A stretch of DNA of 64,000 bases. Origin: Psammoneis japonica. Its lineage: Eukaryota. Each line of letters begins with the position of its first letter. The first letter of the stretch is position 1. The stretch is taken from contig QPGO01000031.1 of assembly GCA_008632985.1 (NCBI GenBank), positions 124,001-188,000 of the forward strand, written 5' to 3'. The notes under the pieces were generated by a model. That model was not told where the DNA came from. It saw nothing but the letters and a program-made list of their open reading frames with translations, and searched no databases. The position numbers and the translations under genes were made by a program. Shown in pieces: positions 11,851-56,750 of the stretch.

Positions 11851-11851
11851 T

Positions 11852-16900: not shown

Positions 16901-16976
16901 TCTTCAACAGATCTTTTGCTGGGTTTCTCATGTTTCCCCCACTCTTTCTAGATGCTCCAACACATTTAAACCAAAA

Positions 16977-17060
16977 TGCAGCATTGGATGTCACCATTTT
17001 GACTTGCATCTTGGGGTTTGCAGCATTGGATGTTGCAATTTTGATTTGCATCTTAGGGTT
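16977..17060. repeat. 42-bp tandem duplication
   Basis: TGCAGCATTGGATGT...TTTTGA.TTGCATCTT.GGGTT occurs twice with period 42. Confidence 0.75.
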
Positions 17061-24144: not shown

Positions 24145-24533
24145 CAGCCATGCTCTTTTAGATGACAATGGAGCATCTTCACTCTTTCTTGCTGGTGTGC
24201 ATGTTGTCACTGCCACAAGTTCGCAGATGGAGGTCCCATGTGCTTGTTGCTCTTGCTTGCTGCTGTCGCTGCTCTGTCAGACAGAAGGGTCCCGGCCAGC
24301 TGCTGTCATTTCACCTGTCACTGGCGGCATTTTCTGCAGTTTGATCTTGATCTTAGAAGCGTTGGCTGCTTGAAAATGCCTCTTTCCAGACATTGTGAAC
24401 AATTCAAGCTGTGTTCTTGGTCAACTTGGCCGGAGCTGTCATGTCCACAGCATCTGCTGGGGAACCCGTGCAAGCATTTGACATCTGACAACTGCCCAGG
24501 ATCATCTCACTCAGTTGCAGAGGGTGTTGTTGT

Positions 24534-26374: not shown

Positions 26375-27149
26375 GGTGCATGAGCCATTCATTGAATCTT
26401 TTGGATGGACCAAGGCAGGCATTGATTTGATTTGATTGTTGCCAGTGGTCATGCTGGCAAGCAAGTGTTGCTGCATCTGCTTTTGTTTTTGATGCCAAAA
26501 ACACTGCCAAAGAAGAAGCTTGTGCCTTTCTTCATTGTCTTCAGTGAGCACAGTGCCCAAGTCATTGCCATCTGCGTGGCACATTTCACACTGGACCTTG
26601 TTTGAAACATTTGCCATCATGTTTGATGCAGAAAAAACAAAGAAGTTGAGTGAAAAGTTCAGATGGCAATGAAAGGCATCAAATGAAGATGCCCTGCTTT
26701 GGGACCCACACTGCGCATGATCACAATGAGCCCACAGCAGACTCTCCAGGTGTTTCTTGCACTTGGTGTTAAATGTTGACACTGCTGCAGCTGACCCCAT
26801 GGTTGGCTTGAGCTGCATTGCACAATGTCTCAGCATTTTGGAAAGATGAAAAATTGATTTTGTGCATTGTGAGCATCATTGTCAAAAATCACAGCAGTGG
26901 TGGCACCATGCACAGATGTGCCCCCCCCCCCCCCCAACACAGCAAAATGACACTGCATGTTCATCACCTTGGCTCTTTGTTTGTTGCAATGGAGCTGGAA
27001 TGGAGGCAAGCTTTTTTCAAAGTGAGCTCATGTTGTCATCTCTTCCATTGTTGTTTGTTGTTCAATGCATTTTGTGTTGTGCATCGGCATCACACAGAAG
27101 CACTGATGCACGTTTTTTTGTGCATCAGCACCAATGCCTGCCTCTTTCT

Positions 27150-28900
27150 GATGTGCCCCAGGTGCCTGCATTCTGACCAGCATGCTTTGAAAATTGCTTC
27201 ACTGCATTTCCTGCAGCCATGCAAGGATGTGCAGCATCCTTTTCTCAAGGCAGTGCAACTTGCATCTGGCACATTCAATCTGGCCTTCCTGGTGCAATCA
27301 CAGCAATCCTTGCTGTGGTTGAATGTGTTTGCAGCTTTCTTGTCTTGCACAAGGTCTTCTTCCTGCACAGGCCTCTTTGTCCTTTCTTTCGTCAATGTGT
27401 CTTTCCATGTGTGAGGCCATGTTTGCAGAAAAAGCCTTCTCCACAGCTGCAAGGTGTGCATTTCTTCTGTCCCATTTTGGCTTTTTTGTGGGGTTGCACA
27501 TGATGTCTGCCCAATCCATGCCAGCACCTTTGTTGACACACTGCATCCCCAGGTCCATCATCCACTTGAACTTTCATCATGTTGACTTGGTGCTTTTGTG
27601 AAAGGGATGTCCTGTTGTTGCAAGCCTCTTTGTTGTCACTTTCATCATGTGAGTTTCCAAGTCCATGCAATGGCTCATGATGCAGAGGTGGCATCAATTT
27701 CCCTTCAAGCTGGTGGACCAGTCAGCAGTCTCCCTGTCTTCTCTGTCTGCAGCATGCATGAACTTGATGCAGTTGGGGATGACTGCATGTGATGAGACAG
27801 GAGGAACTTGGTTGTGCTCATTGTTGTCCCACCACAATGCTTTGCAATTCCCAGGTGCTGCACCCACCATGTGGTTGTGCAGCATGCCAACCTGTTTTCT
27901 GTCTTTCCAAGTTGTTGCCTGCACTGCAAACCTGGCCACATTGCTCTTCTTTCCTTGCACAGCTTTCTGAGCCCAGCACAACCACCCACAAGGCACCTTG
28001 GACAATGCTCCAGATGACAGTTTGTGGAAAGGGAAGCTGCTTGTGTGCATGTCATGCACCATCTTCATGAGCTCTTCTGACATGTGGAAATGGTTGGCAT
28101 GCAGCTTGTGTCCTTTTCCCAACAAAACCAGTTTGGGGTCCATGGCCAACAGCCTTGAAACAACTTGCAGCAGCAAGGCATCATCATTGTCCTTGCTGGT
28201 GCAGATGTAAAATGCATGGAGATGTCCAGTTTCTGCACAACACAGTGCCCGCACTTTTGTGCTGTGTTTGATTGGTTTGACAGGCATGCATTGAGCAAAC
28301 TTTACAGCCCTGCCATTGCAGAGAATCACAGACTCATCAACTGTTGGCTTCTCTCCAATCACCCACCCTCCCTGAGTCATTTGCCAACTTTGTTTGCAAA
28401 GGGGATCATCTTCTGCAATGGGTGCCATCTTGAGGTGCCGTGCTTTGGCAACTTTCTGTTGTTGATGAAGTGGATGAACCTTCAAATCTGTGCAAAGGCA
28501 CTTGAGAAACAGAGTTCTGAATCCATGGCAATGCCAAGTTGCAAGTTTCTATCCACAGAAGGTTTTGCCTGCCACTGGACTTTCATTGCAGCCAGAACAA
28601 ACAGAGCTTCAAACCAAGCAAGGAGGCACCCAGGAGTGACTGGAGCCCCAGGTTTTTTTGTCCTTGTGTTGCTTCCTCCTGTCAGAGTGGTGCTCATCTC
28701 ACATGGAGCCAATGCCCAGCTCTCCTCTTGGGCTCTCTTCCTCAAATTCTTCATCCCCAAGCTTGTCACCTGAGTTGCCACCTTTGCTGCTGCCAATGGA
28801 CCAGTCAGAAGAGCAGCAAGAGAAGAGACAGAGTCCTTGTCATGAGAAATTGTCCAAAAGCTCCCATGAGCTCCAAACAATGCCAGTGTCACTCAAATGA
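27150..28900 (-). mobile_element. Degenerate piggyBac-type DDD transposase
   Basis: TVDESVILCNGRAVKFAQCMPVKPIKH.TKV.ALCCAETGHLHAF.ICTSK, WKDRKQVGMLHN, VIPNCIKFMHAADREDR and a C-terminal Cys-rich domain match the piggyBac consensus with Tyr replaced by Cys/His. Confidence 0.85.
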
Positions 28901-29149
28901 GAGGCCTCATTGCTGGTTCCAGAGGTGCTCCTGCTGCTCTTGCTGCCACTGCTGTTGCATCCACTGGGGTCAAAAGCTGAGCCACCAAAGAGAGAGTTGC
29001 CATCATCCATGAACCAGCTCCTTTTGCCTTTCTCCAACAAGCAACTCCAAGTCCAGCTCCAACTCATCACAGTCAGCCCAGGACAAGGAAAAGGACATTT
29101 AGAACAGGGTTGGACTTTGCTGTCTCCACCCCCCCCCCCCCCCCACCCA

Positions 29150-31310
29150 ACAACCAGGCATCCTCTGGATGTTTCTTTTGATGCCAATGGTTGCAAGTTT
29201 GACAAGCGGGGCAGAGACATCAACGACTGTCAAGCAGCTGCCAAAATTCAAGCCAACATTGTTGGGATCTCTGAAGTGTGCTTGAACACCGCTCATTTTG
29301 ATGTTCTCTCAGTGTGTCAATCTGCTGTGTCAAATTTGCTGCTCCATGGTCATGGGACCCATTCTAGCAGCTCTGCCACCTTTGCTGCTCAGCACAAACC
29401 AGGAGGTGCAGCCATCATCTCGTGCAATTCTGTGTCCACCCAGTGCCATTTTCAGGAATTGGACCCACTTGGACGGTGGTCTGTTCAAGCCTTTGGTGGC
29501 CACAATGGACAGCAAGCAGTGTTTGTTTCCTGCTGCAGAGTTTGCACCAAGAATCAACATCAACCAGGAAAAATTATGACGTGTGCACAACAACTTTGCT
29601 CATTGAGGCAACAAGGCCACCAGGTCGTCAATCCATGCCAGGCCTTTTGCGTGGATTTGTCTTGCATCCTCCAAGATTTTCCAGCAGGGTCCAATCAAGA
29701 GGTTGTCATGTTTGGCAACTTCAATGCTGACTTCATGGTAGATGCTGATCCTTGTCTGCCCTGGCCCAGTGATTTAATCTTTCTGATGTCCTTTTCAACA
29801 TCAGGGGTGACACCAAATTTTCCACCTGCACACGTGGATCCAAATGCCTCTGCCATGTCCTTGCATCTCCAGGTGTCTCACATGTGCTGCTCATTTCGGA
29901 GGCTGTGAAGCTTTTGGTTGTTACATTGCTTCTGACCATCATGCCTGTTTTGTGGATCTCAACACTGTTGCCTTGATTGGGGACCCAGCTGTTGATCTTC
30001 CCAAATCCTGTTTTTGTGATGTCCAGGCATCATCTGAACCCCAAGTGACCACACACCTGCAGACTGTGGGCCCAATGATGCTTGAGAGTTGTTCTGTTCA
30101 GGAATGGTTTGCAAAGTCATTGGAACTTGATGCTCCCAATCATGCCTTGGCTAGATGGTTGGACCATGACATCCTGCAGTTCTCCCTGGTGCAGCTGCCA
30201 AGAAGTGTCATGTTCACCACAAACCAGATTGGTTGGTTGAACTTGCAGATCTGCCACACTGTGCACATGTGCTCACTTGAGTTGTTTCCATGATGCACAC
30301 TCAGCTGGACCATGTTGCTCAAATTAGAAGCATTTGAGAAAACCTTCACAGTTCTGTTGGTGTTCCAGAGACCTTGCAACAGGCAGCAGTGGCCAGTGCC
30401 ATCCATTGTAGATGGGAGATCTCTCAAAAGATTGCAGCACTCAACCCCAAAGGCACTGAGGCTTCTTGTAAGAAGGCTTCCATTTTGCTGAACATTTGGA
30501 AAGCAGAGGAACTGACCAAGCTTTTCAAGAAGATTGACCCATGCAATGCTCAGTGTGATGCCAGCATCAACAGTGTTCAGGTCCCTTGAAACCCTGGAAT
30601 TCACCCCAAGGAATGTCAAGACTGAGTCACTGTTGATGCTCCAAAAGATGCAGCTGCTGCACTCTGTCAGTGCAACCAGAAACCTTTTGGCCAAGCAAAA
30701 GGGATGCCTCCCACTGTGCTTCCTTTGTCTGTTGATTTGGGATGTGAAGGCAACACGATTGTGCCAGACCTCTTTCTTGATGGGGGGAAATGGCACCTTT
30801 GCCTTGAATGAAGCCATGCAACTTTTCATCCAACACCTGAAAAGGTGGTCCTCCATCTCTGCATCAACTTTGCTCTCTGAATCAGACTTGGAGGGAAAGA
30901 TCAAATGCTGGAAAGAGTCCACTTCCACTTCCATTGCTTGGGTCTCCACCTTGGTCACTGAAAGGTCATGTGTGCTCCTCACAGTCACTCCGACTCTGCC
31001 ACCTCCAACAGTGCCCATGCTGATGAAAGAAAAACCTTGGACAAAGTTCAACAGTTGCTTGTTTGCATCAGGCTGAATCTCTTGAATTGTGCTCTCCAAC
31101 GGGGACTCTCATTTGATTGCTGGAAAGATGTTGTGAATGTTGTGATCTTCAAAGAGCCAGGAAACAACAGGATTCACCGCCTCCGCATCATCCACATCTG
31201 CAAAGCTGATTTCCAACTTGTCTCAAGCATCAAGTGGTGTGCCCTGGTGCAAAATGTGGAGAAATGTCATTTGCACAATCCAGGTGTTTGTGGCACCCAT
31301 CCCAGTCATG
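29150..31310 (+). mobile_element. Degenerate non-LTR (LINE) retrotransposon, 5' part: APE endonuclease and start of RT
   Basis: APE motifs (D)ANG, IVGISE, KPGG, DPLGRWS, VSCCRV, FGNFNA and SDH. RT N-terminal block WKDVVNVVIFKEPGNNRIHRLRIIHICKADF. Confidence 0.8.
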
Positions 31311-31768
31311 AATCAAGTGCCAAGTCTGATTCATGGATGATGCTTCTGTTCATCAATCTCTGCTTCTGGAAGAACCGTTGAGTCTTCCAGTGACAGCAAT
31401 TGGAGTGACTCACATGACCGCCAGGTCAAAATGTCATTTCCAGTCAACCTTGACATCTTCTCACAATTCGCATCTTCAGCACAACTTGTTGTCCTTTGCT
31501 GTGATTGTCATCCTCTGCACTGCATTGCACAACCTCAAGAGAGGTGTCCTCCTTCATCATCTGTGTGGTTGGTTGTGTCTTGAGTGGTTGCAACCCCAGT
31601 GACACACTGGCGTCAACCTGCAACAGCATTGCTGCCACCCAATTGTCCCCTTCGATGTGACATCTCATCCTGCAGTGATCTCCTCCATGTCGCACTCTTT
31701 TGGCAATCTTTTGTGTCACAATCCCACCCTTTCAATTGATCTTCTGCATTGAATTCCCATCCAGAACC

Positions 31769-34700
31769 ATGTCTGGCGCTGATCCCACTGCTCCCAGAAT
31801 GGATCCAGAAGCATTCAAGAAGTTTGCTGAGGCTTTTGCAGCCATGCAAGCATCCAACGCATCTCCACCCATCCCAACACCTGTCTGTGGTGGATTGCAT
31901 CCCTCTTGCGGTGTGCATGCCTTGGCGGGTCTTCTTTGGATGACACCTGCAAACCAAAAAATGCTCACACCTGCCACTTTGCATCTCAGCATCATCATCC
32001 AAATGCCATTGAGTCCATCAAGCAATCTCTCCATGAACAACTTGCTTTGGCAACTGTTTTGAACTTCAACGGTCAAATCAAGCCATCCCATGGTCCAAGT
32101 GCCAAGTTGGATGAGGAAGACTTTGTCAAGACCATCTCTGCCAAGACCTTGTAAAGTTGCGTGGGCAGGAAACCTTCTGCCATTTCAAGAAATCTGATGG
32201 CAAGGTTGTGTGTGCCCATTCAACTGTCTCCATGCCATTTCTGTCAGTGACCTTGAGATGGAGTGCAAGTCCCGCAACGCTGCTTCTGGTGATGAAGGAT
32301 GTGATGATTGTGAGAAGGACAACATTGCTCTCTCTCAACTCCTGGTCAAGTCTCGCACCACGGAAACATTCCACAAGAAGATTGAAGTGAAGTTCAATCA
32401 CATCCAGGACTTCAAGGATCTTCTGGGGTCAGCATTGTTCATGATGGCCCTGGACACTTGCAACGCAAGTGCCCTTGTAGATGTCAAGCCTGCTGAGAAA
32501 AAGCTCAAGGTGCCATTGCTTGAGTCCCACCCTGGCAAGGATTGCACTGAGCTTGCAACCAAAGCTCTGCATCTGGTCAATGTCACAGGCTCTGCTGTTT
32601 TATCCAAGGTGTCCAAGACATCATCTGAGTTCTTCAACCATCAAGCATTTGTGAAAATGGACAACATCAAGAAGACAGAATGCAAGCACTGTCTCCATGA
32701 CCTGCCCGAAGTGCCGCACAACCTCAACTGCATGACCTCAGGCCCTGTTGGCCTTGTTGGCTGGATTGCCAAAACTCATGGTGAGCTTGTCAGTGATGAA
32801 GACTGGCCTGCCTTGGCTGCCAAACTCCCTGAGTCAAACAACGTGTCCACCAAGGACATGCAATGTTGTGGACGTGATGCATTTGGACACACCAAGTGCA
32901 CCTGCAGACATGGACAAGCCACCCAAGAAGAAGAAACCTGCCTGGCATTTTGTCAACAAAGGCCCCACCCTCACAGATGACAAAGGCACCCTCTGGAAAT
33001 GGTGCAACAAGTGCATCAACAAGGAAATGGGCAAGACAGGGATGCGCCAAAGCCACTCAAGTGAAGAACTTGTCAGCAAGCATTCTTCCACCTCTGACAC
33101 TGCTGCTTCGGCAAATCTGTCCACTGTGACTGACCTTTCTTTGGGTGCCCCATTTGGTCCCCCCAAGCAGACAACAGCTCCACCAACAGACAAGCCCTCA
33201 GATCCCAATGAACTTGTCTGTTGTGGTGTGTGGTGCACTTCTGTCAATGATTCTCTGAGTGGCCCTCCTGTGACCACTTCAGCATCTTTCACTCCTGCTG
33301 CTCTGATGGCTGAGAGGGAGACCACTGTGGCCAAACCTGCTCAAGTCTTGGTCAAGACAGTTGACCCTGAAGAAGCTGATGACTTCTGCAAGTGCTCCAA
33401 TGCTTTCTCCTTGATTGCCTTGGAACCACCAGCTGTTGAGCTGTTTCCAGCCTGTGCTTTGAATGAGATCAAGAATCCGGATGTGTTTGCCTCCATGATG
33501 CCATCTCAAGTCATGTGGAAGAAGGGCTGTCAGATGGCATGTCAGATGATCTTGTTTGCAAAGCAAGCAACCCATCTTTTGAAGATGCACATGAAACTTG
33601 CCTCCAAGCTTCCATTGTTGTGGGTTTGACTTCTGTGATCCAGAAACCCAAGACACTGTTGATTGTCAAGTCAAGGAAATGACCTTGAGCTCCCACCTTG
33701 AGCTCCTTTGGAACTTTTTCAAGCTTCAAATTTTCTGGCTGTTTGCCATGCTCTGGGAAATGGTGCCACACATGTGCTTTGCTCCTGTTCCCATCCCACC
33801 TTGTTGCATCCACGCAAGCAACTCATCCCAACCATTGACAGTTTCCCACCCACTTGGGTGGTGTTGACCAAGGCGATCATGGTCTGGGCATCTGTCTTCA
33901 ATGGGCAGGTGCCCACACATCCTTTCTCCAACGTCCCTGCTTGCTTTGCTTGTGCCAGCTTGCAGGTCTGTTTGATTGTTGAAGAGCCAGATGACAAGAT
34001 TGTGTTGGATGCGGGCAGTTTGGTTGAATGCAACAAAGTCAAGGCACATCAAGTGCTTGCCGAGTTTTGTGGCACGTGATCCAAAGCACTGCTTGAGCAA
34101 GTTTGCACAGCTCTGGGAGGACAAACGCTGTCCATCTGAGGGCTCTTGCATCCCTCCTGCTCTTGAAGACCCCAAATCCTTCTTTGACACCTGTGAAACA
34201 AAAGAAGCCCTTGGTCCATCATCAACTGAGCCAAGCTGCCACTTTGACACCATCGAAGGGCTGTCACCAGACTGTTTTCATTTCAATGACTTGTCCACCA
34301 AGAATGGCTTTGTTGATGCCACTGCTTGGCAAGACCCTGTCAATCTGCTCCAAGAGGCTGTAGATGGAACTGCAGCTCATCCTGCTCATGCCTCCATGCA
34401 GGTGTTGACTGGGAAAATCCCTTTGGAGTGACTTGACACTGACTCGAACTTGTTGTCAAAACAATGGCGCATCACATCCCTGAGGCTGGGCAACATCTCC
34501 TGTTGCCCCAGCACCCATTCAGCAAGAAGCATGGCATCTCAGGAAAGCATGAGGGAGATGAAGATTCATTTAAATTGCACATTGACGGTGCTGGCTCCAT
34601 TGAGGTTCCATGCACAGCAAATCACTTTGCCCGTTGCAATTGCCTCCAACAGCACTGCTCCAGCTCCTCAAGTCAACCTTGCCACACTGAATGAGGACAA

Positions 34701-36960
34701 TCAGAACCCAGCTGCTGGCCAGAAGTTGCTTTTGGAGTGGCACTCCAGGCATGGACACTTGAACCTGGCATGCATTTAAGGGCTGCTCCGCGCTGAGCCA
34801 TTTCTACAATCAAAATTCAAGCATGCATGAAAATGTGACCACCCACAGTGCAAAGCATGCAAACATGCAAAAGGGAATCAACGTTCCCTTGGTTCTGCCA
34901 AACACACCATGGTCCCAGATAAAAATGGAGCTCTGAAAGCCAATCATCTCCATCCAGGACAGGCCATCAGCGTGGATCATTTTGAGTCCCGCATCTTTGT
35001 TGGCCACGCCTCAGGGCACCTCCACATTGAACATCAACTTGATTTTTCTGCTGTGGAAATGATTTGAGCAAAGCAAGCATTTTGAGAAACATGCAATGGA
35101 CCATGGTGTGATTGCACAAGAGTTTCTTGCTGATTTGGGCGTGTTCAAGGCTGACTCTTTTGTGCAACACACATGACAACATGAGCAACGCATCCACTTC
35201 TGTGATGCAAAGCACAGCAGAATGTGGCATGCAGTTGGTCTCCAATGTGGCAAGAGCAGTGCTCCTCCATGGATTTGTTCATTGGGGGGGGGGGGGGGCA
35301 TTGACAGCTCCTCACAGCCTGTGGCTGCATCTCATGCCTCACACATGTGCAACATGACTCCCAATGCTCAATGCCATTGCCCTGCAGACATTTTCACTTG
35401 TTCAATGGATCCCCAACATTGTCTTTGCACCATCCACATCTGGGGGTGTCCAGTTTGTGCCCTTGAGCCCACACTTCAACAAAGCATGAAACTCCCCCAT
35501 TGGCAACCATGTTCCCATCGTGGCCTCTTTGTTGGTTTGAGCAATGATGTTTGCTCCAGCAAGGTGCCTCTTGTCCTCAATCTTCAGACTGGCAGCGTTG
35601 CTTCCAACCTCATGTCATTTTTGACAATCTCTTCACCACTGCACCATTGCTTGAGAGGGAGGGCAACCTGCCAAGTCACTGGGAAGAGTTGTGTCTGGAT
35701 CAATCCACCCAGATGCCCCCCTGAGAAAGGCCAAAATGTCTGTTCAATTGATGATTGGCTTGCTCTGGACAAACTGCAACATAAAAAGAGGGAGCCAGCT
35801 TGAGCTGCTTGCATCCAAACCACCTTCAAACTGCCCGCCAGTGTCACAACCGCCACCTGCTGTTGCTTCTCCCAAATCCACTCCTCTGACAATGCCGATG
35901 ATGCCAAAACCTCCTCCTGCCACTCTTCCAGAGGGAGCTTCTTTGCTGCGCCATTCAAGTCAATCAAACAAAGGAAAGATGCAGTCCAAAAGGGTTGTGG
36001 ATGAAGTCTTCTTTGCTCTGGTCGACCCAAAAGACAAGCCACATGGGACTGCAGCACAGTTGGTGCATCTGGCAACCCTGGACACCTGCATTGATTTGCA
36101 GACCTGGAATGTTGATGATCCCAGGGTGTGTGCAGCAACCAAGAAACAAAAGGACCCCAACATGCCATCCCAGCATGAAGCTGTGCACAGTCACCAGGCC
36201 AACAAATGGGTCAAGGCTGCAAAAATTGAGGTCAATGGGCTGCTCCACCGTCCTGCATGGGATGTGGCACCAAGGACCAATGACATGAATGCACCTCCAG
36301 GCATGTGGGCCTTCAAGCTTAAGAGACTCCCTGATGGTGCACCCTTGAAGTGCAAAGCCTGGCATTGTGTTCATGGCAATTTGCAGAAACAAAGTGTTGA
36401 TTTTTTTTTAGACCTGTGTGCCGGTCATGCAGTGGTTGTCAACTTGACTTCTCCTCACAATGGCACTCAAAGAAGGTTGGACCACTTGTCAATTTAACTG
36501 TGCTGCCGCCTTTTGCCAAGCCAAGATCAAGGAGAAAGTCCATGTTGAGCCTCCCAAATGTTTTCAGCCAAAATCAGGTGCCAACTTGGCACTGAAATCA
36601 TTGAAAGACCCACATGGACTCCACCAGTCTCCCAGCTGCTTCCATGAAAAGCTTTTCAGTGGATTGATTGAAAGAGGATGGATCCAGTCCACTGTTGACC
36701 CTTGTCTTCATTTTATGAAGGGGCATGCCATGTGTGGTGCATGTTGATGACACTGTGTTTGCCGGTGCCTCAGCAGAAGAACTTGAAGCCAAGATCGCCA
36801 AATTGGGCATCTCTGACAATGAGCAACATCATGTCTTTGACCTGTGCGACAAAGGCAAAGTCAGCAACTTTTCAGGTGTCAAGATCAACCAGGCCCAATT
36901 GAGAAAGTGCTGCACACCACCAAGATGGAAAACTGCAAAATGGAGCTCCTGCTCCTGCAC
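31769..36960 (+). mobile_element. Degenerate, internally deleted Ty1/copia element nested in the LINE
   Basis: gag-like start MSGADP. Integrase remnants LEWHSRHGH, PGQAISVDHFES and HIWGCPVCALEPTLQ..KLPHWQP.S.RGLFVG. RT remnant WAFKLKRLPDGAPLKCKA..CV.G.LQ, QSTVDPC and VVHVDD. Confidence 0.85.
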
Positions 36961-36989
36961 TCCCTGCACCCATTGGCAGCAATTCTGAA

Positions 36990-38650
36990 GGCCCACCATC
37001 CCCAGTTGAGATCATCACTGATGATGATGGAAAGTGGCAGTTTCTTCCTCATTGCTCAATGCCAACCTTGGAAACTCCTCCTCATCTCCCAGATTGCTTC
37101 CATGACTGACTGCAATCCTTGCCTCTTTGGGAGTCTGCATTGTTCTCTGACATTGCACTTCACATGTCCATTCATGAGTTGGTGGATTGCTTCGTTTCTG
37201 CCTGCCTGACAGCAGGCAGTGATGGGCCCATGCTTCTTCAGAGTGCCGCACTCGGCTGGACTGTCACCATGAATGGCAGACCATTGGTGGATTGTGCTGG
37301 ACCAGTTTTTGGATGATGCCTTCTTCCCACTGTGCAGAGGCCTGTGGATTTCTTTCCCTCATGAGATTTGTTTTTCGTTTCCTGGAATTCTGCACACTGT
37401 CATCACATGAAGGAGTTGACAACTGGTGCAACAACAAGGCTCTCGTTAGAGTTCTTTCCCATTTGTCAGACTGCCATGTCATTCCATTGACCTTTTGGTT
37501 CAAGCCCATTCCAAGAAGGATTTTAATTTGTGGCAGCATGGAGCCAATGTTTTGTCATCTGACTGGGACATCATCAATGAAATCTGCCAGACCTTCATGA
37601 CCATTGAATCCATCCTGCAGCCTTCTTCACCTGGACAGGCCCATGCCACAGAATGGGTGAAAGGACACCAGGACAGGCACACTTCAGTCAAGTCTCTTCC
37701 TTTAAATGCTGAGATCAGCGCATGTGCCGACAACCTGGCAGGACAATTTCAAGGCCTGTGTGAATCAGACGCAACCCAGGTTGTCCCCCTTTTCCTCATT
37801 GCCAGTCCCACCCATGCCTTCAAGATGGAGAGCCATCACTGCTGGACTCAAGTCTGCTGTTCTCTGTGCCACTGTGGCCTCTGCTCCACTGGATTGCATC
37901 AGGGAATGCAACGGATGGGACGATTCAATTGCCGACAAGACAGGCTGGCCCATTCACACCACTCTGGTGTGAAGTTTCTCAAAGACACACGTTTCCACTG
38001 TCAAGTTGATCCACGAGCTTCTTCCCATGAACAAGGTCACTCATCGGCACAACCCCGTGAGACCCCATCATTGTCTGCAATGCAAACATCCCATGGAGGA
38101 TCAGGGTCATGTCTTGTGATGCCCTGACAACAATGAAGCCTGGCATTGCAGATTTCTGCAAGGCCTCTGCAAGCACTGTGACATCATCGACTCGATGCCC
38201 CCTTTGCATGACCTGCTTTTGTCTGCAATGGAAGCTTGGTTTCAAGGTGCGATGACATGTGACATCAACATTGCCCCAATGCTTTGCCCCCTGTGAAGAG
38301 CCCAGTCAGACACAGGATGGCGTCAAGTGTTCAATGGTCATTTTTCTGCTCTGTGGAGCACTTTTCAAGAAACGCATTTTCACAAAACAGGGCTTCTGGA
38401 AAAGCATCGAAAGGAAAATTGCTCTCCTCCAGTGTGGGCAGTTCAAATGGACACCCATGTGCAAAGGGTCAAGTGGGTTTCATTTGCCACTTTTTCAGCT
38501 TGAATTTGGCCAAACAGCTTGTGACTTGTGTGTTTTTTCCTGAATTTCACCATGGCTCACCGTGGTGAAAACATCAAACCACACCAAGTCTGTGACAGAG
38601 GTGGTCCATCTTCCAACTCTCATCCACTTTGTGTTCATCGTGCATCAAAG
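36990..38650 (+). mobile_element. Degenerate LINE, 3' part (RNase H and zinc knuckle)
   Basis: GSDG..., SSHCAEACGFLS, WCNNKALV, SDWDIINEI, WVKGHQD and ADNLA are RNase H motifs typical of diatom LINE ORF2. Same strand as the 29.1-31.3 kb part. Confidence 0.75.
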
Positions 38651-38762
38651 GTCACATGCACACCAAAAAATGTTTGAGGACCGACCACTGCGTTTTGGAA
38701 TGTCAAGATTGCCATCATCGTCGTGCTTCGATCTCGGTGCCTGATGTTCTCGTTTTCGCGCG

Positions 38763-38981
38763 CGAGTGAAATCCGATGCATCAGAGACTGTCTGGTGCGC
38801 TCTACAAGTTGAAGTGGTGGGACTGTGACGTGGCATCGGTGGGAAAATGACAATGACCATCGATCAGTCTCACTTGTTGCATCTGTTGTAGTTGCAACAG
38901 GCCCAGAAGCATCTCATTGGTTGTGTTCGCGCTGTCGTGCTAAGACTGTGAGTGGCTGAGCCTGTTCGGCAGCTAGATTTA
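38763..38981 (+). repeat. 5' LTR
   Basis: 219-bp ungapped match to 45222..45440. Confidence 0.9.
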
Positions 38982-39274
38982 CTCGCTTCATCAGAGCCAA
39001 GTCGTCAACTCAGGTTTGGTTTGACAAAAAGCATTGAACAACTGTGAAGAGACGATCGCACCAATGTGGCAGGGTTATGACGACGAACGCCGGTCGATCG
39101 AAGGGTGTGTGATAATTGTCGTCGCCTGGCATCAGTGAGTGCACAAGCAGTGAGGAGACATGGCCAGTCTCCATGCTTCCAATGGCTGTGTGTTGTGTCA
39201 ACACAGACCGAGACATCCTTTTTAATTTATGATTTCTCACATGACTCTGTTTTCCTGCTGGCACAGGTGCCACC

Positions 39275-40701
39275 ATGGCGGCTGCTCCTCCGGATCCTAT
39301 CGAGACAGCACTCGACTGGATCGGATTTGTTGATCCAGCTCAACGAGTCTCGCTCATGGCGGACTTTGCGTCTTTTGACGATTTGGAAGACCTCAAGGAA
39401 GAGGACATCGATTCTCTCGCGTCATCGTGCGCTGGGAGGACGGTTGCTGAAGGGCGCATTCATTTTGGTTTGGCCCGCAGTCGTCGACTCAAAGCTTTCA
39501 TCCATTGGGTGCAGGACTTTGGTCATGTGAGTGAGAATCCTGCTCTGGATGGGCTTGACCAGGCAACTTTCCGTGCTGCTCTCCAGACGGCACTCAGTCG
39601 TGCCGAGATCCGTTCCCAGACCAAGACCACTGCTGACTCTCTTGGTAAAGAGGCGTCACCCGGGATGTTAGAGAGTGAAAAGGATTGGGTTGAGTGGAGC
39701 ACCGGCTTGACGAATGTGCTTGGCATTGTGCCAGGAGTCTCTGGCATGCCGTCAGTGCATTGCATGCATCAAAACGATGCACCCGAACCCCAAGGCCACA
39801 ACACTTTTGTCCAGAAGTGCACTGCATGTGCACCCCTCCAAGGCCCAGCTTTCGAGGCTGACACTCGTGCGGTTCATTTGCTCATCGAGTCCCTTGCCAC
39901 GGGCACACCCAGTGAGCAATGGTTGAAAGACCACAAGAATGAGCAGAACGGACGAGTTGACTTCAGGGCGTTGTGTGACCATTGCCAGGGAGAAGGAAAT
40001 GCCTCCCGCCACATCTCTGAAGCCGAGCGCATGGAGAACACCCTCCATTGCAAGAGTGAGCGCGCCATGCTGTTTGAATCGTTTGTCAACAAGCTCCAAG
40101 AAATGTTTGACATTTTTGAGGAGAACGACGAACCGAAAACGGAGGCCCAGAAATTACGGATCCTTTTGAGAAGACGCAGCACCAATCACTGCAAGCAGCA
40201 GTTGAGACCTTGAAGGCACAGAATGAGTTTGGAGGAGGCATCACGTTCACCATGGCAGCCAATCATCTTGCTGCCAAAGTCGCCACCCTTCCAGAGACGA
40301 TTGCGCGTCGTCGTGCGATTGCCGCAGTCGCCTCTGGAGGAGGAAAAGAGGGTGGTGCCATCTATGATGAGGATGGATCCATTGACACTGGATGCCACAA
40401 AAATTGGCACCAGTTGAGTGAGGAGGACAAACAGAAGGTTGTCGACGAGCGCGTGCGTCTGGGTGTTGCCAAACAACCCAAATCAACCAAATGCCGTGCT
40501 GCATCCGTAAAGTTGCTCAAGAAGAAGAATCGGAAGCTGTCGTCGCAGCTTAAAGAAGCGAACCGCAAAATCTCCGCCCTGAACACCAATGCCAGCGCCG
40601 ATTCTGGCGATGATGAATCAAGGGCTGGCGGCAAAGACGGAGACAATGCCGGAGACGCATTCGGTGGTCGCAGCGAAAAGCACAGAGGAAAGAACAAATG
40701 A
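39275..40701 (+). pseudogene. gag: copia gag (1-bp frameshift near 40170)
   Basis: ORFs 39275..40213 and 40210..40701 join through a T-run frameshift (ILFEKTQHQSLQAAVETLKAQ). Motifs LKAFIHWVQD and QNGRVDFRALCDH. Confidence 0.8.
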
Positions 40702-43700
40702 CTGCCAAGCTGGACCCTGCTTTGTTGCATCATAAACTTCTTGTTGTGGTTGCCACATTGGGGTGGGGGACAGCCGCATCAATCAAAGGAGCAGCATTCA
40801 CGTGGCTGCAACAAACGCGTCTGTGAGGTCGTTGCCTCGACACGGCGTGTCTCGGCAACGCGGTCTGACACCACATGAATCACTCACATCCATGACATGA
40901 GAAAGGCACAACATGGACGCCTTGAAATGGATTCGCATGCTGACACCACTGTTTTTGGTCAAAACTTTACTCTCTTGGGTTGTTCTGGACGAGAATGTGA
41001 CGCATCGCCTTTTAACGAGGGATGCGATTCCATCAAGAGTGTCCCAATTGTCTCGGCAGCCACGGCGTGGACGTCACCGACATCGGGAGCAACTTTTATT
41101 CTGGTCTTCCACGAGGGCTTGTGGATGCCGGAGTCCATGGAGCACTCGCTGGTTGCCCCAAACCAGCTGCGGCACTTTGGTGTTGAGGTTCAGGACAACC
41201 CCTGCTCCGATTCACCACTGTGTGTCCTTGCAGAGGACAGATCTTTCATGATGCCGCTTGAAGCTGTGGGGACCAATGTCATTGCGGCGACTCGCACTCC
41301 TGCAGAACAGGAGTTGCACGAATGCCCCAAGATCCAGATGACCTCCCAACAACCTTGGGATCCACAGACCGTCAAGTTCAAATCTGTTGGAACTCGACGA
41401 TCTGCGGAGGAGGAAATGGAGCTAGTTCGGTCAATTGCGACGATCCACACCAATCTGACACACGAGTTCAAAGCCGATCCTGCCTGCAGCAACCCTCAAT
41501 CCGGGGACTGTTGCGATGAGCGATTCATTTGTGGAGTCGATCAAGTCCAATCAAGGCTCACAGCTGCCGTTAATGTGGAATCGGAGCCAACAGTCCAGAT
41601 CTCTGCCACGGAAACAATCGGCGAAGGACCTGAAGACTTGGCACTCCCGAAGACATTCATGTCCAAGGAGAGACACAGTGATGCATCGGCTGCTGACTCA
41701 AGTGAATGATGGTGCACAGGACTCAAGCAAGCAGCAAACATGCTCAAGAAGACCACACAAAAGCTCATCAGGTCAGCATTGATGCCAATGGGTCAACGCT
41801 GCCGGGCCGATCGGATGTTCACGAAGCCCAGGTTACGGGGTGAATGGGCAACCGACACGGTTGATGGCAAGGTGGTTTCGTTGGAGGGCAATCGACACGC
41901 CCAGATCTTTACAAACAAGCAATGTTTCGCTGCGATTTATCCCATGGACAAGAAGAGCAAGGCTGGCGAGGCTCTCAAGATGTTTTGCCAGGAATTTGGC
42001 ATGCCAGAGAAACTCCTGATGGATGGATCTAAGGAGCAAATGAAACCTGGCACGGAGTTCATGAAGACCGTGCGCAAGGAGGGCACAGATTGTCATGTCA
42101 TCGAACCCGATCGACACAACCAGAATCCTGCAGAAGGGGTTGTGCGCGAGGTTGGACGCAAGTGGTTCCGCATCATGGTCAAGAAGCAAGCACCGTGGCG
42201 ACTGTGGGACTGCAGATTCATGTGGACATGTGAGACCATGTCTCACACATTCCTTAGAGCCCATCATTTGGATGCTGGAGTGCCACCAGAGAACATTCTC
42301 GGAGAGACCGTGGACATCTTGGAGCACCTTGACTTTGGATTTTATGATTGGGTCTGGTGCAGGGAGAATGCCGGTCTGGGGGATGAGAAGCTCGGCAGGT
42401 GGCTTGGTGTGTCTCACAGAACAGGGAGTCTCATGTCGTGTTACGTTTTGACACAGACAGGCAGTGTCATTTCGAGAACTTCTGTTCAACGAGTCACCAA
42501 TTTAGAAGCCGCTGCTCAAGAGAAAAAGGCAAAGTTTGACAGTTTTGACGAGGAGATCAAGCGCCGGTTGAAGGAGCAAGACTTTCCCGACAACGAGGAT
42601 CGCAAGATCAGCCCCGAAGACTGGAAAGACCACCTTGGATGCGACGATGAATTCCTCAATGAGTGTGATTGTGTCATGTCCTCAGAGGAGGCAACAAATG
42701 ACGATGACGACAAGAAAGACGAGGAAGCCTCACCGGAGGTGGCGGACTGGGGACACCTTAACATGGAAGATGCGCTTCCAAGAGATGACAACAGTCCTGA
42801 GTTTGCTCGTGTCACGAAGAGGTTGAGAGACGCCAGTGGCATTCCGACAGGAACAGCCAATGACAATCCCATCCTTGATGCAAGGATGTATGAGGTAGAG
42901 TGCCCTGATGGGCACCATGCTGCGCTCTCTGCTAACTCCATCGCCATGAATGTGTTTGCTGAGATCGACGAGGACGGAAACCGGCATGTCTCATTTGACG
43001 AGATCGTTGATTGCCGCACCAACGGGGACGTTCCTGAATCCGAGTTCTTTGAGACCGAGCAAGGTGTTCGGAAGAGGCGCAAGACTGCCAAAGGATGGGA
43101 ACTCCTGTTCCAATGGAAGGACGGAAGTGCGACTTGGATCGACTTGAAGATTGCGAAGGAGAGCTTCCCAGTCCAAGTTGCCGAGTTTGCCATTCAGCGC
43201 AAGATCTTGAAAGAGGCAGCGTTTGCTTGGTGGGTTCCTCATGTCATGAAAACCTGCAAGCGTTCCATTGCGAAGGTCAAGTCGAAGTGTTGGCTACGAA
43301 CACACAAGTTTGGCACACGGATCCCAAAGAGTGTCCAGGAGGCAATCCAGATCGATCGCGCAAATGGCAACACCCTGTGGTGGGACGCCATTTGCATGGA
43401 GATGAAGAGTGTGCGGGTTGCTTTTGACAAGTGTGAAGGGGAGCTTAAGGACATGGCGCCTGGTTTCCAGGAAGTGAAGTGCCACATGATTTTTGATGTC
43501 AAATTGGGAGAAAACTTCCGCCGTAAAGCTCACATGGTGGCTGGAGGCCACACTGCTGAAACCCCTGCACACATCACTCATTCCTCTGTCGTCTCTCGGG
43601 ATTTGGTGAGGATCGCACTGACGCTTGCTGCGCTCAATGACTTGCAAGTCTTTGCATGTGACATCCAGAATGCCTGCCTCACTGCCCCTTGCAGGGAGAA

Positions 43701-45035
43701 GATTTGGGCCAGGGCAGGTTCCGAGTTTGGCGAGGATGAAGGTTGCATCATGATTGTGGTCAGGGCTCTGCACGGATTGAAGAGCTCCGGAGCAGCATTC
43801 AGGGCATTCCCAGCGGAGACGCTTTGTGATCCAGGGCACAAACCGAGCAAGGCTGATCCGGATGTGTGGATGCGACCTGCGGTGAAACCCGATGGATTCG
43901 AGTGCTGCGAATGCGTTCTAGTTTATGTGGACGATGTGCCATCGATTGGTCACGAACCCATGAAGACGATGGACGGCATCAGGTCCAAGTTCAAGCTCAA
44001 GGGTGATGAGGCAGCCGAACCAGATTCTCATCTCGGTGCCACGCTTTCCAAGATGACTTTAGCCGATGGGACCACCTGTTGGGCAATGTCTGCGGAGAAG
44101 TGCTGCAAGTCCGCTGTCCAAAATGTAGAGGACAGGCTTGGCAAGGAGGGGAAACGTCTGCCCAGCAAGGCGACAACCCCATTGAGCAGTGGATGCAAAC
44201 CCGAGCTAGACACCACTGGTGAGCTGGACGCTGAAGGACTTCACCACTGTCAAGAGCTGATTGGTGCACTGGTTTGGGCTGTGGAACTCGGTGGAGTGGA
44301 CATCCATTTGGAGGTTTCGTCAATGTCTGCTCACCTCGCTCTTCCTCGCGTTGGTCATCTGGAACAGGTGTTGCATGTCTTTGCACACCTTGAACAGGTT
44401 CCAAAGCGCCAAGTGGCATTTGATCCGGCTCATCCCAAGATCGATGAATCGCGATTCGTGAAGTGCGACTGGCACGACTTCTGCCGAGATGCAAGAGAAG
44501 CCATCCCGACAAATGCCGAGATGCAAGAGAAGCCATCCCGACAAATGCGCCGCCAGCCCAAGGTGATGTGGCATCGACACATTGTTTTGTGGATGCCAGC
44601 CATGCCAGAAATGTTGCCGATCGTCGCAGCCACACAGGTGTCTTGATGTTTGTCAATCGGGCACCCATCGTGTGGCACTCGAAGCGTCAGAACACCGTGG
44701 AGGCTGGCACATTTGGGGCTGAGATCGTTGCACTCAAGAATGCCATCGAGCTCATGGAGGGTCTGCGATGTGAGCTTTGAATGTTTGGGGCACCGGTCGA
44801 AGGGCCAACAAATGTCTTCTGTGACAATGAGGCCATCTACAAGAATTGCTCCATTCCTGAGTCTACACTCAAGAAGAAGCATCACTCCATTGCGTGTCAC
44901 CGCAACCGCGAAGCTGTTGCTGCAGGGACTGTTGGGATTGCAAAGGAGGGAACAGAGACAAACCTCAGCGATCTGTTCACAAAGGTCATGTCGTCCATCA
45001 GATGGAATTTTCTGCTAGACAAGTTCGCGCACTGA
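40702..45035 (+). pseudogene. pol: copia pol (PR-IN-RT-RH) with probable CGA>TGA stops and a 32-bp duplication frameshift
   Basis: Same frame as the gag end, with in-frame TGAs at 40876, 41707 and 44778. The tandem 32-mer TGCCGAGATGCAAGAGAAGCCATCCCGACAAA at 44482-44545 shifts the frame before RNase H. Confidence 0.9.
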
Positions 45036-45221
45036 GACGGATGCGTGGAGCGGTGGTGAGTTTCTTCCCCAGTGAGGGTTTGCACCATGCACAGAGGATT
45101 GGCGACTTTTCCCTGGCAAGGGTTTTTACGTCGATCGATAAGTCAAGATTGTTTGAGTTGGACCACTGACACAGCATTGGATCGAATTGTGCCTTACGAG
45201 TCAGGTGCATTTCGAGGGGAC

Positions 45222-45440
45222 CGAGTGAAATCCGATGTGTCAGAGACTGTCCAGTGCGCTCTGTGAGTTGAAGTGGCGGGACTGTGACGTGGCATCGGTG
45301 GGAAAATGACAATGACCATCGATCGGTCTCACTTGTTGCATCTGTTGTAGTTGTAACAGGCCTAGAAGCATCTTATTGGTTGTATTCGCGCTATCGTACT
45401 AAGACTGTGAGTGGCTGAGCCTGTTCGGCAGCTAGATTTA
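45222..45440 (+). repeat. 3' LTR
   Basis: Match to 38763..38981, preceded by a polypurine tract. Confidence 0.9.
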
Positions 45441-53463: not shown

Positions 53464-53639
53464 GGTCTTTACGGAGGAAGGGACTAGATTGACGCCATGG
53501 TGGTGAATGTGATGTGGGATGTGGGCGAGTGTCGATGAGCGACTGGGTTCTCATCATTGTCCGTCGATTTTTTTAATTAGGGGACCTCCCCAAAATTGAA
53601 ATCCTCCGTGCTGTATGTTTCAATCCGAGGTAAGTTGAT

Positions 53640-56600
53640 CATTCGCCGTGTTCGCCGATGGCAAAACACAAAATGACCGACCAACCATCTGCCGTCAGAT
53701 TGAGCAAGCTAAACACCCTCATTGTTGATCTCGCATGGTGCAGTGGCACACATGATGATGTAGAACACTGCGCTGCAAAGATGATGAATGGAAAAGTGCA
53801 GAAAAACTCGAGAGAGAGAGAGAGTGCCGTGCTGCTCTGCAGCCTCAGAGCCAGAGTTGGCCAGAGCCTCTGGCAGCGTGAATGCTCCATTTCAATGCTC
53901 AGACTTGGCAGTCAAATTGTCAATTCATTTGATGAAAGAAAAGTGAACAATGTGCTGGTCAAATGTGCAGCATCAAAAAACTGAGCCACAGCCTCCTCTT
54001 TCTTCTGCGCCACCTCTCGACGACCACCCCCCTTTGAAAAAAACACAGGAGAGCAGCAAAAGAGCCTCAGCAAGTGCACAAGAGCTGAGAGTTTGCACAT
54101 TCTTCCACTCCTCCATCACACACTGGATGAGATTGGCACTGATGATCATTGTCAGCAATCTTTTCTGGGCTGGGCACAGCTGCTGTCTCTCTGCACAGAG
54201 AAGTGGCGCGCTCCTCAGGAGAGATGAGTCCAAAATGAGATGGGCAGCCAGAGTTGATGCACAGAAGCTCAGTCTTGTGGCTGTTCAGAAAAGTGTTGTC
54301 ACTCATTTTCCCATCTGTCTGCACATGTGCATTCTGGCTTCAGAGGGGGAGCCAACTGAAATGCCACCCCACCAGCAGGGTGGCATTTTTCAGCTGCCTC
54401 CCCAAAGAGCAGTTGCTGGCTCTGCTGGCGCACAGCAGCCACTCTCTGTCACATGACATTGTGCACATTTGCACATGACTTGCTTGACAGTTTTCTCTCA
54501 GCAAAAAATTTTGGTTGGTGTCATGAAGTTTTTGAAAAAGATCCCTGCTGTTTTAGTGTCATCACACAGGCATGCAAACTCAGCTCTTGCAGATGCTTGC
54601 ATTTGCAAGGAGGTGCAAGAAACAACAAAAAAGCCCCCCCCTCAAGAAATGATGAAGCACCACGCAAATGGCACCACAAGGCTGCAAGGTGGCAATGCTG
54701 TGCCAAAGGAAATTTGCTCTCATGTTTGGAGGCATGAACCTTCACACCAAGCACTGGCTTGCACCCCTGCCCCCAGCCAAATTTGCACCCTGTTCCACCA
54801 CATTGCAGCAAGTTGCTCCATGCACCACTGAGTTGGCTGCTGTGTCTTGACATCACAGAAAAAAGCAGCCATTGGCATTCAAGCAAGGGAAAGAGTGGAG
54901 TCCAGAAAAACTGCAACTGCTCTTCTCCAACCCACCTCCACTTGAGCTCCCAGATCTGGCCCAGCCCTGAATGCCTGAGCTGCTGGTTCATTTGGAGATC
55001 ATGGCTTCATCAGAAGAGCAAGCCATTTGTCTCATCTTTTGCCCACTTGCCACCTGCCTGTGTCCCAACAATTATCCCAGATCAGTGCAAAAAAAGAAAA
55101 GATGCTTTTGCTGGCCCACACTGCCCCAAGTGGAGCCTTGGGAGAGCTCAAACATTTCTGGCTTGCCCGCAGCCTCTGAAGAAGAAGCAAATGTTGTGGC
55201 ACAACTTCTTTGACCCCCCCCTCTCTTGGTGCTCACTGAAAAAGAGCATTGGGTGCCTTTTGAGCCAACCTTTCTGCTGTGCAGCAAGCAAAGTTTTTTC
55301 ACATCACACAATCAATGTGGTGCACAAGATGGCAGCCGTGGCTGTGTTGCCCTTCTTTGCACCACACATCTCAGCAATCTTTTGAGAGTGCTCTCTTGCA
55401 AAGCTCCTGCATTGGGTCAAACACACACACAGCAGCAAAATGGCCAAAAACAAACACACAAAAGGAACCTTGGCATTGAAACCCAAACCTGAGTGCTGTG
55501 GTTTGTTCAACAAAACCTCTTTGTTGAGCACAAAAAAGAGAAAAGAGCACAGCCACCCAAAAAATCCAGCACAAGCAAACTGCTGTGTCTTTGCCAATGA
55601 CTGCTTGGTCACAAGACCAGCTGGAAGATGCAATGCACTTGGGTGTTGTGAGGAGCTTCAATGATGTTAGAGCAAAAGCAAAAGATTGACCTTCTTTTAA
55701 ACAGAAATCATTGAAGCCCATGCAGACACAGGAAGCATTGAAATGGGCAGCGTCAGTGGAGTTTTGCAAGGAAGAGGGATCAAGCCAGGGAGGTTTGGGC
55801 TGAGAAGAGAAGGTGGGTGAGGAAGTGCCAAAGAGGAGTCAATGGGAGAAGCAGCCAAGACCACCAAGGTGGTCAATGGCAAACGGGAGGAGGAAGATCC
55901 CCCAGTGGCGTTGAGGGATTAAATGGTGAGGAGGGGGACCCACAGGCAGAAGAGGAGGTGGAAGGACCCAAAAACTTGGATCTCATGCTTGTGTGGTGTG
56001 CCTTGGTNNNNNNNNNNNNNNNNNNNNNNNNNNNNNNNNNNNNNNNNNNNNNNNGGAGGAGCTGCTTTGGGAATGGTGACATCGATGGCGCGATGTGTCG
56101 ATGCTGGTTGGAGGGGGCGGAGAGGTGAAAGCGGGGGGGGGGGGGTGGAGATGCCAACATTGGCTGGTCACAGGAGGGGATGATGGGAGAGAAGATTTGC
56201 AGGTTGGAGATGAACATTGTTGGAGGAGTGGCAAAGCTTGGAGAGAAGGTCAAGGGTGTGAGTGAGAACGAAGACAGTGTCTCGGATGCCATTTGAAAGT
56301 TTGGATGTGTGGGGGGCCTTGCATGCAAAAAGGCATGATCGCCAAAGGCATCCAGAGCAGCACGGCCACAAGGGCAAGGAGAGTTAATGAGAGAGAGAGA
56401 GAGAGAGGAAGAACCAGAAGGCGAAAGGTGAAGCTGGCATTGGATGGCCACAGCACTCTCGTCAGAACAAGCAAGGTGTGAGAGGCAGCACGGCATCGAG
56501 CGAGGCTGGTGAGGGGAGACAAAAGGGAGGGAAGAGCTGTCTGAATTTCAGGGGGGAGTCAGATGGCAAGGGCCTCTGAAATGATCCACTGCTGGTGGGC
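53640..56600. other. Hypermutated block C
   Basis: TpA nearly absent from about 53640 to 56580, CpG depleted in the core. Confidence 0.85.
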
Positions 56601-56750
56601 GTGATAGAGGCCGCGGGCTCTAGAGTAGCCAGTGCAGCAGGTAGAGAGCACCGCACCTTCGTCGGATCCAACGTGCGCTGTAGCATGTGTCGGAGAGTGA
56701 TCTGATCCGCGAAAATTCGTGAACGACAATCTTGCTAAGAAGAGATGCCA
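55700..56750 (-). mobile_element. 3' fragment of a non-LTR retrotransposon with restriction-like endonuclease (CRE/R2-type)
   Basis: CPCG..LDAFGDHAF, (H/S)NGIRD and AIDVTIP motifs form a CCHC knuckle plus REL endonuclease signature. Confidence 0.6.
56008..56054. other. Assembly gap
   Basis: Run of N. Confidence 1.

Follow-up and report, generated by a model that had tools for sequence, protein, structure and literature searches.

The question raised by this locus is why a young copia retrotransposon has lost most of its TA steps (TpA) while its CG steps (CpG) are still abundant. The element lies at 38763-45440 of a 64,000-nucleotide stretch of Psammoneis japonica contig QPGO01000031.1 (positions 124,001 to 188,000, forward strand), here called the window, and all coordinates are window positions. 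Comparisons with 80 relatives, between the two long terminal repeats (LTRs), between a host-gene fragment and its intact copy, and at four domain edges all supported the view that TpA loss was faster than CpG loss and came before it, as the original prediction had proposed. The probable explanation is a mutator acting at the DNA level that turns TpA into CpA or TpG in place, on both strands, within bounded domains of silenced repeats, and faster than CpG decays.

Loss of TA and tyrosine codons in the young element

By its repeats and alignments, the element was assigned to the Ty1/copia LTR retrotransposons. Its features were as follows:

38763..38981, + strand: 5' LTR, 219 nt, direct repeat with 45222-45440 (93% identical, gap-free)
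39245..40213, + strand: gag-like open reading frame (ORF), 322 aa from stop to stop
40843..45032, + strand: pol, broken, in the protease-integrase-reverse transcriptase-RNase H order of Ty1/copia (tblastn and Pfam RVT_2)
44475..44538, + strand: frame-shifting tandem duplication of 32 nt in pol (91% similarity between its two copies; tblastn frame change at 44508)
45222..45440, + strand: 3' LTR, 219 nt, direct repeat with the 5' LTR, containing the edge of the TA-free domain

By tblastn, the pol region aligned colinearly, in two frames, with residues 18-1383 of P0001, a PF07727 polyprotein, and RVT_2 was above the Pfam cut-off (E=1.3e-8). The position of integrase upstream of reverse transcriptase was taken from the tblastn alignment, integrase having no Pfam hit of its own. 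Amino-acid identity to 120 metagenomic copia polyproteins was 55-64%. The gag-like ORF had no Pfam hit, and the observed/expected ratio of TA was 0.12 across 38982-40842. Inspection by eye of the DNA flanking the LTRs revealed no 5-bp match indicative of a target-site duplication, and the sequence after the 5' LTR may resemble an initiator-tRNA primer site. The family was estimated at roughly 20-45 copies of at least 90% likeness from the depth of the contigs that represent one public DNA run (X1), with depth bins of 1045-2800 over the copia element vs 58-85 in most flanking bins. X1 contained 0.49 of the window's words, with 40 of the 235 variant places listed; it may be the assembly's own sample, and its differences from the window were taken as polymorphism only.

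Across 39275-45035, the observed/expected ratios were 0.11 for TA, 0.75 for CG, 1.41 for CA, and 1.48 for TG; the CG value exaggerates the loss of CG because the TA changes themselves raise G+C. Counts per kb were compared with those of 80 related metagenomic copia loci, obtained in a second scan with an alignment of 28 homologs as the query, an initial scan of metagenomes that used the mutated protein having yielded no relative. The element contained 7.3 TA per kb (relatives: median 41.9, minimum 23.5) and 52.3 CG per kb, rank 28 of 80 (relatives: median 58.3, interquartile range 44.8-63.8). Relative to the family median, TA was about 83% lower, while CG was about 10% lower and inside the family range. 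The abundance of CpG stated in the original prediction was therefore borne out, and a similar fractional loss of the two steps in the young copy was not seen. TA loss like that of the window was present in none of the 80 related loci. Among these loci, the lowest observed/expected TA ratios belonged to L062 (0.39), L015 (0.44, with CG at 0.38), and L041 (0.47), which may be mildly mutated copies in other organisms.

Selection or composition in place of mutation, whether the element avoids TA, gene conversion is GC-biased, or the assembly is at fault, is extremely unlikely. TA was mildly under-represented throughout the window, with ratios of about 0.5-0.6 even in the gene islands, which would favour such a cause. 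However, none of the 80 relatives came near the window's TA level, and non-coding DNA, dead elements, and host DNA were all affected. Against an artefact, X1 contigs agreed with the window by about 99.7% in an old depleted block (8 letters and 1 gap in 2609), X1 possibly being the assembly's own sample.

At the protein level, the loss was seen in the tyrosine codons. The 978-aa ORF at 41710-44646 contained 5 Tyr (0.5%), close to the earlier count of about five, vs a mean of 3.5% in 120 homologs, and Cys and His were raised. Tyr was conserved, in at least 70% of 40 homologs, at 29 columns; 4 were kept, 14 had become Cys (TAY->TGY), 8 had become His (TAY->CAY), and 3 were Phe. All conserved Trp (22/22) were kept, and other residues were about 60-90% kept. 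The motifs previously quoted for Tyr loss (GNRHAQ, KSKCWLRTHKFG, ITHSSVVSRD, IQNACL, ALHGLKSSG, GFECCECVLVYVDD, and HSIACH) were found in the tblastn alignment to P0001, as were the Leu->Pro cases, and Thr->Ala after a T-ending codon was present in the conserved-column comparison.

A total of 614 conserved columns contained 127 replacements. When replacements were reverted to the family consensus, 42 were TpA-type (consensus restored by a single CA->TA or TG->TA change), 13 were CpG-type, and 72 were ordinary divergence, the balance towards TpA that had been anticipated. The 42 TpA-type replacements included Leu->Pro, Ile->Thr, Thr->Ala, Lys->Glu, and Arg->Gly. After a T-ending codon, Lys->Glu, Arg->Gly, and Ile->Val were present in pol beside Thr->Ala.

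The stronger claim that TpA change was the main inactivating event stood for missense change at conserved residues (42 vs 13) and failed for the breaks in the reading frame. A TpA mutator never creates a stop codon. All three in-frame stops of pol (40876, 41707, and 44778) were TGA; two stood at Arg positions of the nearest homolog and so fit CGA->TGA, a product of CpG decay. The remaining break was the frameshift caused by the 32-nt duplication.

Both DNA strands were hit, without strand bias. The sense-strand Tyr codons showed 14 A>G and 8 T>C changes, and all 42 TpA-type events showed 25 A>G vs 17 T>C (p=0.28). These counts bear on the alternative that TA was mostly lost before integration, either through ADAR-like A-to-I editing of the RNA or cDNA or through a TA-poor master copy, which is improbable. 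Editing of genomic RNA would give sense A>G only, whereas 8 of the 22 Tyr events and 17 of the 42 overall were sense T>C. On the other side, internal loss (25 of 29 Tyr) was somewhat above the loss in the 5' LTR (9 of 14 TA sites), and nearly all other copies carried the opposite product to the window at two places, which are described below.

Changes in the LTR pair and in a host-gene fragment

The LTRs of one element are identical at integration, and those of the young element now differ at TA sites. The pair showed 15 base differences, all of them transitions, with 13 inferred at TpA and 2 at CpG, and 0 differences at the 167 sites that were neither TA nor CG. At six sites the 3' LTR carried TA where the 5' LTR had CA or TG; at one site the 5' LTR carried TA against TG in the 3' LTR; and three sites (6 events) were flips, CA on one side being matched by TG on the other. 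With the flips counted as former TA, 13 of 28 TA sites (about 46%) were lost across both LTRs vs 2 of 24 CG sites (Fisher p=0.005). In the 5' LTR alone, the 9 TA sites lost out of the 14 inferred were spread along its length, and 2 of 12 CG were lost. The absence of change (0) at A/T sites outside TpA speaks against biased gene conversion. Since all 15 differences fell at hypermutable sites, LTR identity badly overestimates the age of such an element.

A second comparison was provided by a segmental duplication of about 4.6 kb (19571-24144 / 46964-50688, 84-96% identical in pieces), which includes a Cys-rich repeat gene together with the 5' portion of a Mur-ligase gene. Its left copy is cut off at 24144 by a repeat block, leaving the following fragment:

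23474..24144, + strand: Mur-ligase (folylpolyglutamate-synthase-like) gene fragment, a truncated paralogue covering the 5' part, from alignment to the intact copy at 49986-50688

Of the 17 TA in the intact paralogue, none survived in the part of this fragment adjoining the repeat block (23641-24144); 7 had become CA, 6 TG, 2 CG, and 2 other. The same part kept 9 of 29 CG and lost 20, of which 18 had become CA or TG. The AT, AA, and TT steps were unaltered save where they overlapped TA. In the rest of the duplicate (21.4-23.4 kb), TA changes were balanced (10 vs 7). The direction A>G/T>C was thus polarised both by the 40 homologs and by the intact paralogue, in which 15 of 17 TA corresponded to CA, TG, or CG. 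The fragment comparison is independent of any ambiguity in the LTR flips.

Taken together, the LTR differences and the loss in the host-gene fragment indicate that the change acts in place on DNA, after integration. The same comparisons already contradict selection or composition. For loss before integration, the differing LTRs, the equally affected host-gene fragment and DNA-transposon remnant, and an edge that falls within the 3' LTR are all adverse. ADAR-type hyperediting fixed by reverse transcription, which would be confined to retroelements and to A>G on the transcribed strand, did not fit, given the 17 of 42 sense T>C changes and the effect on the host fragment and the piggyBac remnant.

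In fungal repeat-induced point mutation (RIP), duplicated sequence is the trigger, and CpA is turned into TpA by C>T. A RIP-like process with sequence duplication as its trigger, in place of a chromatin domain, would account for targets that are mostly repeats, in a copia family of about 20-45 copies by depth. Several observations make it very unlikely, however: the direction is the reverse of fungal RIP, with TpA destroyed and not made; the duplicate at 19.5-23.4 kb / 46.9-50 kb, 85-96% identical, was not depleted; the 3' half of the 3' LTR was spared though it is as repeated as the 5' LTR; and a multi-copy stretch at 45.5-46.4 kb was TA-normal. Fungal RIP itself did not fit, with CpA and TpG rising to about 1.9, TpA lost, and the duplicate at 21.4-23.4 kb not depleted. 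The window resembles ascomycete RIP in its permanent in-place transitions in mobile DNA, its leak into flanks, and its dinucleotide signature, and differs in the destruction of TpA (A:T>G:C) and the sparing of a duplicated gene region.

Depleted domains, base context and candidate enzymes

The 64-kb window was made up of gene islands alternating with four blocks almost without TA and CG. Depletion was near total, and about half of the window was covered. In the gene islands, dinucleotide counts gave a CG ratio of about 1.0, and in the depleted blocks CA and TG rose to about 1.9. The blocks and the one named remnant were:

10659..19049, no strand: old TA- and CG-depleted block 1 (bins of 11001-19000: TA ratio 0.00-0.18, CG 0.00-0.39, CA/TG about 1.9)
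23442..45347, no strand: block 2, a continuous TA-free domain with sparse TAs only, holding the host-gene fragment, old repeats, and the young copia element
27697..28548, - strand: piggyBac-type DDE transposase remnant in the old part of block 2 (Pfam DDE_Tnp_1_7, E=1.6e-8, 34.7 bits vs a cut-off of 22.4)
53762..56604, no strand: old depleted block 3, with a 47-N gap (dinucleotide bins and edge TAs)
60163..64000, no strand: old depleted block 4, extending past the window end (dinucleotide bins and edge TAs)

In 500-base bins, the old part of block 2 (24-38.5 kb) had TA ratios of 0.00-0.13 and CG ratios of 0.00-0.36. CG loss from the old blocks was 80-89%, with a matching gain of CA and TG. A repeat pair at 24.5 and 26.1 kb showed 10 transversions, 57 transitions, and 14 CA/TG flips per 271 aligned bases, vs 0 transversions in the 219 bases of the young LTR pair, which supports an older age for this part. 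The earlier description of 24-38.6 kb as older elements depleted of both TA and CG therefore held in its depletion and its age; the one stretch that could be named was the piggyBac-type remnant, so these elements are not to be taken as copia. Differences between X1 and the window in a single-copy old block, among the variant places listed, numbered 15: 7 CpG-type, 4 TpA-type, 3 other transitions, and 1 transversion.

Long ORFs were present in all six frames of the depleted blocks (10900-64000), with 47 of at least 140 aa. TAA and TAG fell to 0.8-3.0 per kb per strand from 8.7-9.9 in the gene islands, TGA was raised, and this loss lowered stop density from about 36 to 26-28 per kb per strand. 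Loss of TAA and TAG accounts for the long ORFs only partly, and ORF length is a poor coding guide in these blocks. The piggyBac-type remnant was the sole ORF above a Pfam cut-off, the other 46 having no family above it; SNF and FRG2 matches were both below cut-off and were not used. The sodium:neurotransmitter symporter match, at 12884-13456 (+ strand) in an old block (E=9.5e-4, 18.4 bits vs a cut-off of 27), may mark another host-gene fragment caught in the domain.

The edges of the blocks were sharp. TA per 500 bases fell from 25 to 0 at 23.5 kb, and the last or first normal TAs stood at 10658, 19050, 23441, 53761, 56605, and 60162. The right edge of block 2 lay within the 3' LTR, with the first surviving TA at 45348; the first 46 nt of this LTR had lost 4 of 4 inferred TA, and position 127 onward had lost 0 of 10. 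At four edges, normal CG density persisted about 0.1-0.65 kb deeper into the block than TA, which indicates that TA loss leads. To the right of the 3' LTR, 45441-46400 had a summed contig depth of about 680 vs about 55 for unique DNA and a TA ratio of 0.70.

The edge in the 3' LTR, this TA-normal multi-copy stretch, and the spared duplicate together point to targeting by position rather than by homology. The positional target is presumably a domain of silent chromatin. The 3' LTR edge also falls where the element's transcript would end, and an RNA-guided or transcription-linked boundary is compatible with it.

Four-base context was measured against per-kb rates of the 80 relatives for the young element and against the gene islands for the old blocks (R, purine; Y, pyrimidine):

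RTAY: 1 left of about 104 expected in the young element; 0.3% surviving in the old blocks
RTAR or YTAY: 29 left of about 138 expected; 5% surviving
YTAR: 18 left of about 53 expected; 20% surviving

The order of susceptibility was RTAY, then RTAR/YTAY, then YTAR, with TTA and TAA the most resistant. Surviving TAs had T at -1 in 47% of cases vs a background of 24% (p=5e-18) and T at -2 in 54% vs 29%, and 4 of the 5 remaining Tyr codons had T before them. The lost TA classes returned as the matching CA and TG classes, and Tyr codons after a pyrimidine gave 5 Cys vs 2 His. CpG loss in the old blocks was 80% for RCGY and 89% for the other classes, without the hierarchy seen for TA; this different flank dependence suggests that TpA and CpG were lost through two separate processes.

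Under the proposed mechanism, the mutator would make A:T->G:C transitions at TpA in place on both strands, and its domains would take in silenced repeats and extend a few hundred bases into adjoining DNA. A newly inserted copia would lose TA steps and Tyr codons while its CG is still at family level, and older inserts would lose both TA and CG. The domains are presumably heterochromatin, and the purpose may be genome and transposon defence, with neighbouring genes as collateral damage.

Several points weigh against this mechanism. The LTR flips are ambiguous, since each could have had a TA or a CG ancestor; 7 TA events are unambiguous, and if all three flips are taken as former CG, the losses become 7 of 22 vs 8 of 30 and the LTR contrast is gone. 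Judged from the unambiguous LTR sites, a double hit on CG is estimated to be far less likely than one on TA, and the caveat stands. Mixed sites gave near-equal products (+10.7 vs +9.2 per kb), which a simple T-A-Y half-site deaminase does not predict. Being a repeat is not enough to draw the mutator, given that TA is normal at 45.5-46.4 kb despite a depth that marks this stretch as multi-copy. Some TA loss may also come from an already mutated master; a degree of inheritance is hinted at by 39691-2 and 42792-3, where nearly all other copies shared the product opposite to the window's, CA against TG at one place and TG against CA at the other.

TadA and ADAT enzymes naturally act in tRNA on an A preceded by U, with a pyrimidine following in tRNA-Arg. 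An adenine deaminase of this kind acting on DNA is the first guess for the enzyme, made tentatively. An enzyme that reads double-stranded DNA is slightly favoured, since the two products are about equally frequent and alternating purine and pyrimidine is preferred. A thymine that is oxidised or otherwise modified and pairs with G is the second guess and an unlikely one, and the remaining probability lies with something else.

The thymine route would keep the same in-place domain process and place the lesion on the other base: a TET/JBP-type dioxygenase would make 5-hydroxymethyluracil (5-hmU) or 5-formyluracil (5-fU) at TpA in silent DNA, and pairing with G would give T>C. TpA is palindromic, so the sequence cannot separate T>C from A>G, and the near-equal products at mixed sites together with the RTAY preference fit recognition of a duplex over that of a single strand. 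Excerpts of a dinoflagellate study describe 5-hmU enriched over repeats and 5-fU pairing with G; against this route, the study found no sequence motif for 5-hmU (PMC11071213). As a whole, this version of the in-place mutator is rather doubtful.

Comparison with known systems and other features of the window

Among full-text search results, the same TpA signature was reported only in a 2026 preprint on Bigelowiella natans (Mettrop et al., bioRxiv 10.64898/2026.01.13.699255). According to its main text, two integrated viral regions mutated about 1000x faster than the rest in mutation-accumulation lines; changes in integrated giant-virus and virophage DNA were nearly all A>G/T>C and were confined to TpA, giving CpA or TpG; reverse-transcriptase and DDE domains were enriched in TpA-depleted coding sequences; 124 TpA-depleted clusters were present in 95 Mb; and the authors propose an ADAT2-like adenine deaminase (bioRxiv 10.64898/2026.01.13.699255). 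The window shares the restriction to A>G/T>C, the confinement to TpA, the local action, and the aim at foreign or mobile DNA that this text describes, and is a new instance, probably in a second lineage, of this very recently described kind of hypermutation.

Differences from the B. natans main text were also present. The targets in the window were an LTR retrotransposon, old repeats, a DNA-transposon remnant, and adjoining host DNA, and four depleted blocks were present in 64 kb vs 124 clusters in 95 Mb. TpA loss was accompanied by CpG loss, while CpG and LTR elements are unmentioned in the preprint's main text; that text likewise gives no context beyond TpA, to which the sharp edges and the RTAY>YTAR rule are added here. 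The B. natans rate is known from new mutations in cultured lines; in the window a raised rate is suggested indirectly, by the loss of about 46% of TA sites vs 0 of 167 other sites in the LTRs and by differences from X1 that cluster at TA and CG. The gene islands contained uninterrupted ORFs of 403-720 codons (1.2-2.2 kb), unlike B. natans, for which Table 1 of another source gives exons averaging 159 bp and 7.8 introns per gene (PMC12730881), and the two organisms are therefore probably different. That an intron-poor marine eukaryote, probably unrelated to Bigelowiella, has a DNA editor limited to chromatin domains, reading duplex RTAY and erasing TpA on both strands well before CpG decay, is plausible to a degree just short of even.

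The old blocks resemble 5-methylcytosine (5mC) decay in having lost 80-89% of CG to TG and CA, and this loss is probably due to 5mC deamination; unlike the TpA process, CpG decay was slower here and had a different flank dependence. CpG methylation is reported for diatom LTR elements in excerpts of PMC2806351. The LTRs and RVT_2 of the young element are like those of marine-protist Ty1/copia elements (CoDi-type diatom elements, same excerpts), compared as a general type and not as a CoDi member; the TA loss sets it apart from its relatives.

Hardly any case is known so far of a transposon defence that works by targeted A:T->G:C editing of genomic DNA. The window suggests that retrotransposons, too, are disabled by the process, that its effects extend into genes next to the target, and that it increases GC locally. 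If this is true, TpA editing would be a widespread protist genome defence, RIP-like but chemically opposite, and the four-base rule and the equal product split would point to a double-stranded-DNA enzyme, not a single-strand deaminase. The search for the enzyme gains concrete handles from the RTAY>YTAR rule, from how sharply the domains end, and from how much faster TpA is lost than CpG. For annotation, depleted domains hide transposons from homology searches, as seen in the 46 of 47 long ORFs without a family above cut-off.

Other features lay in the gene islands. Three paralogous Cys-rich genes, all on the - strand (8245-9930, 19571-21500, and 46964-48520), contained 132-bp (44-aa) tandem units with a recurring G-A-C-C motif; they had no Pfam family, and their Atlas neighbours were bacterial hypothetical proteins. 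For a 534-aa uninterrupted ORF at 51946-53550 (- strand), the scoring of 7999 candidates yielded no homolog and Pfam gave no family, and its Atlas feature neighbours (score 0.96) were also bacterial hypothetical proteins. The gene at 58687-59665 (+ strand) joined Pro/Thr/Ser-rich repeats (recurring YYYPTPSPTP) to the Cys-rich module of the tandem-unit genes. A 90-nt inverted repeat, 91% complementary and with arms 801 nt apart (1326-1415 / 2217-2306), was also present in a gene island.

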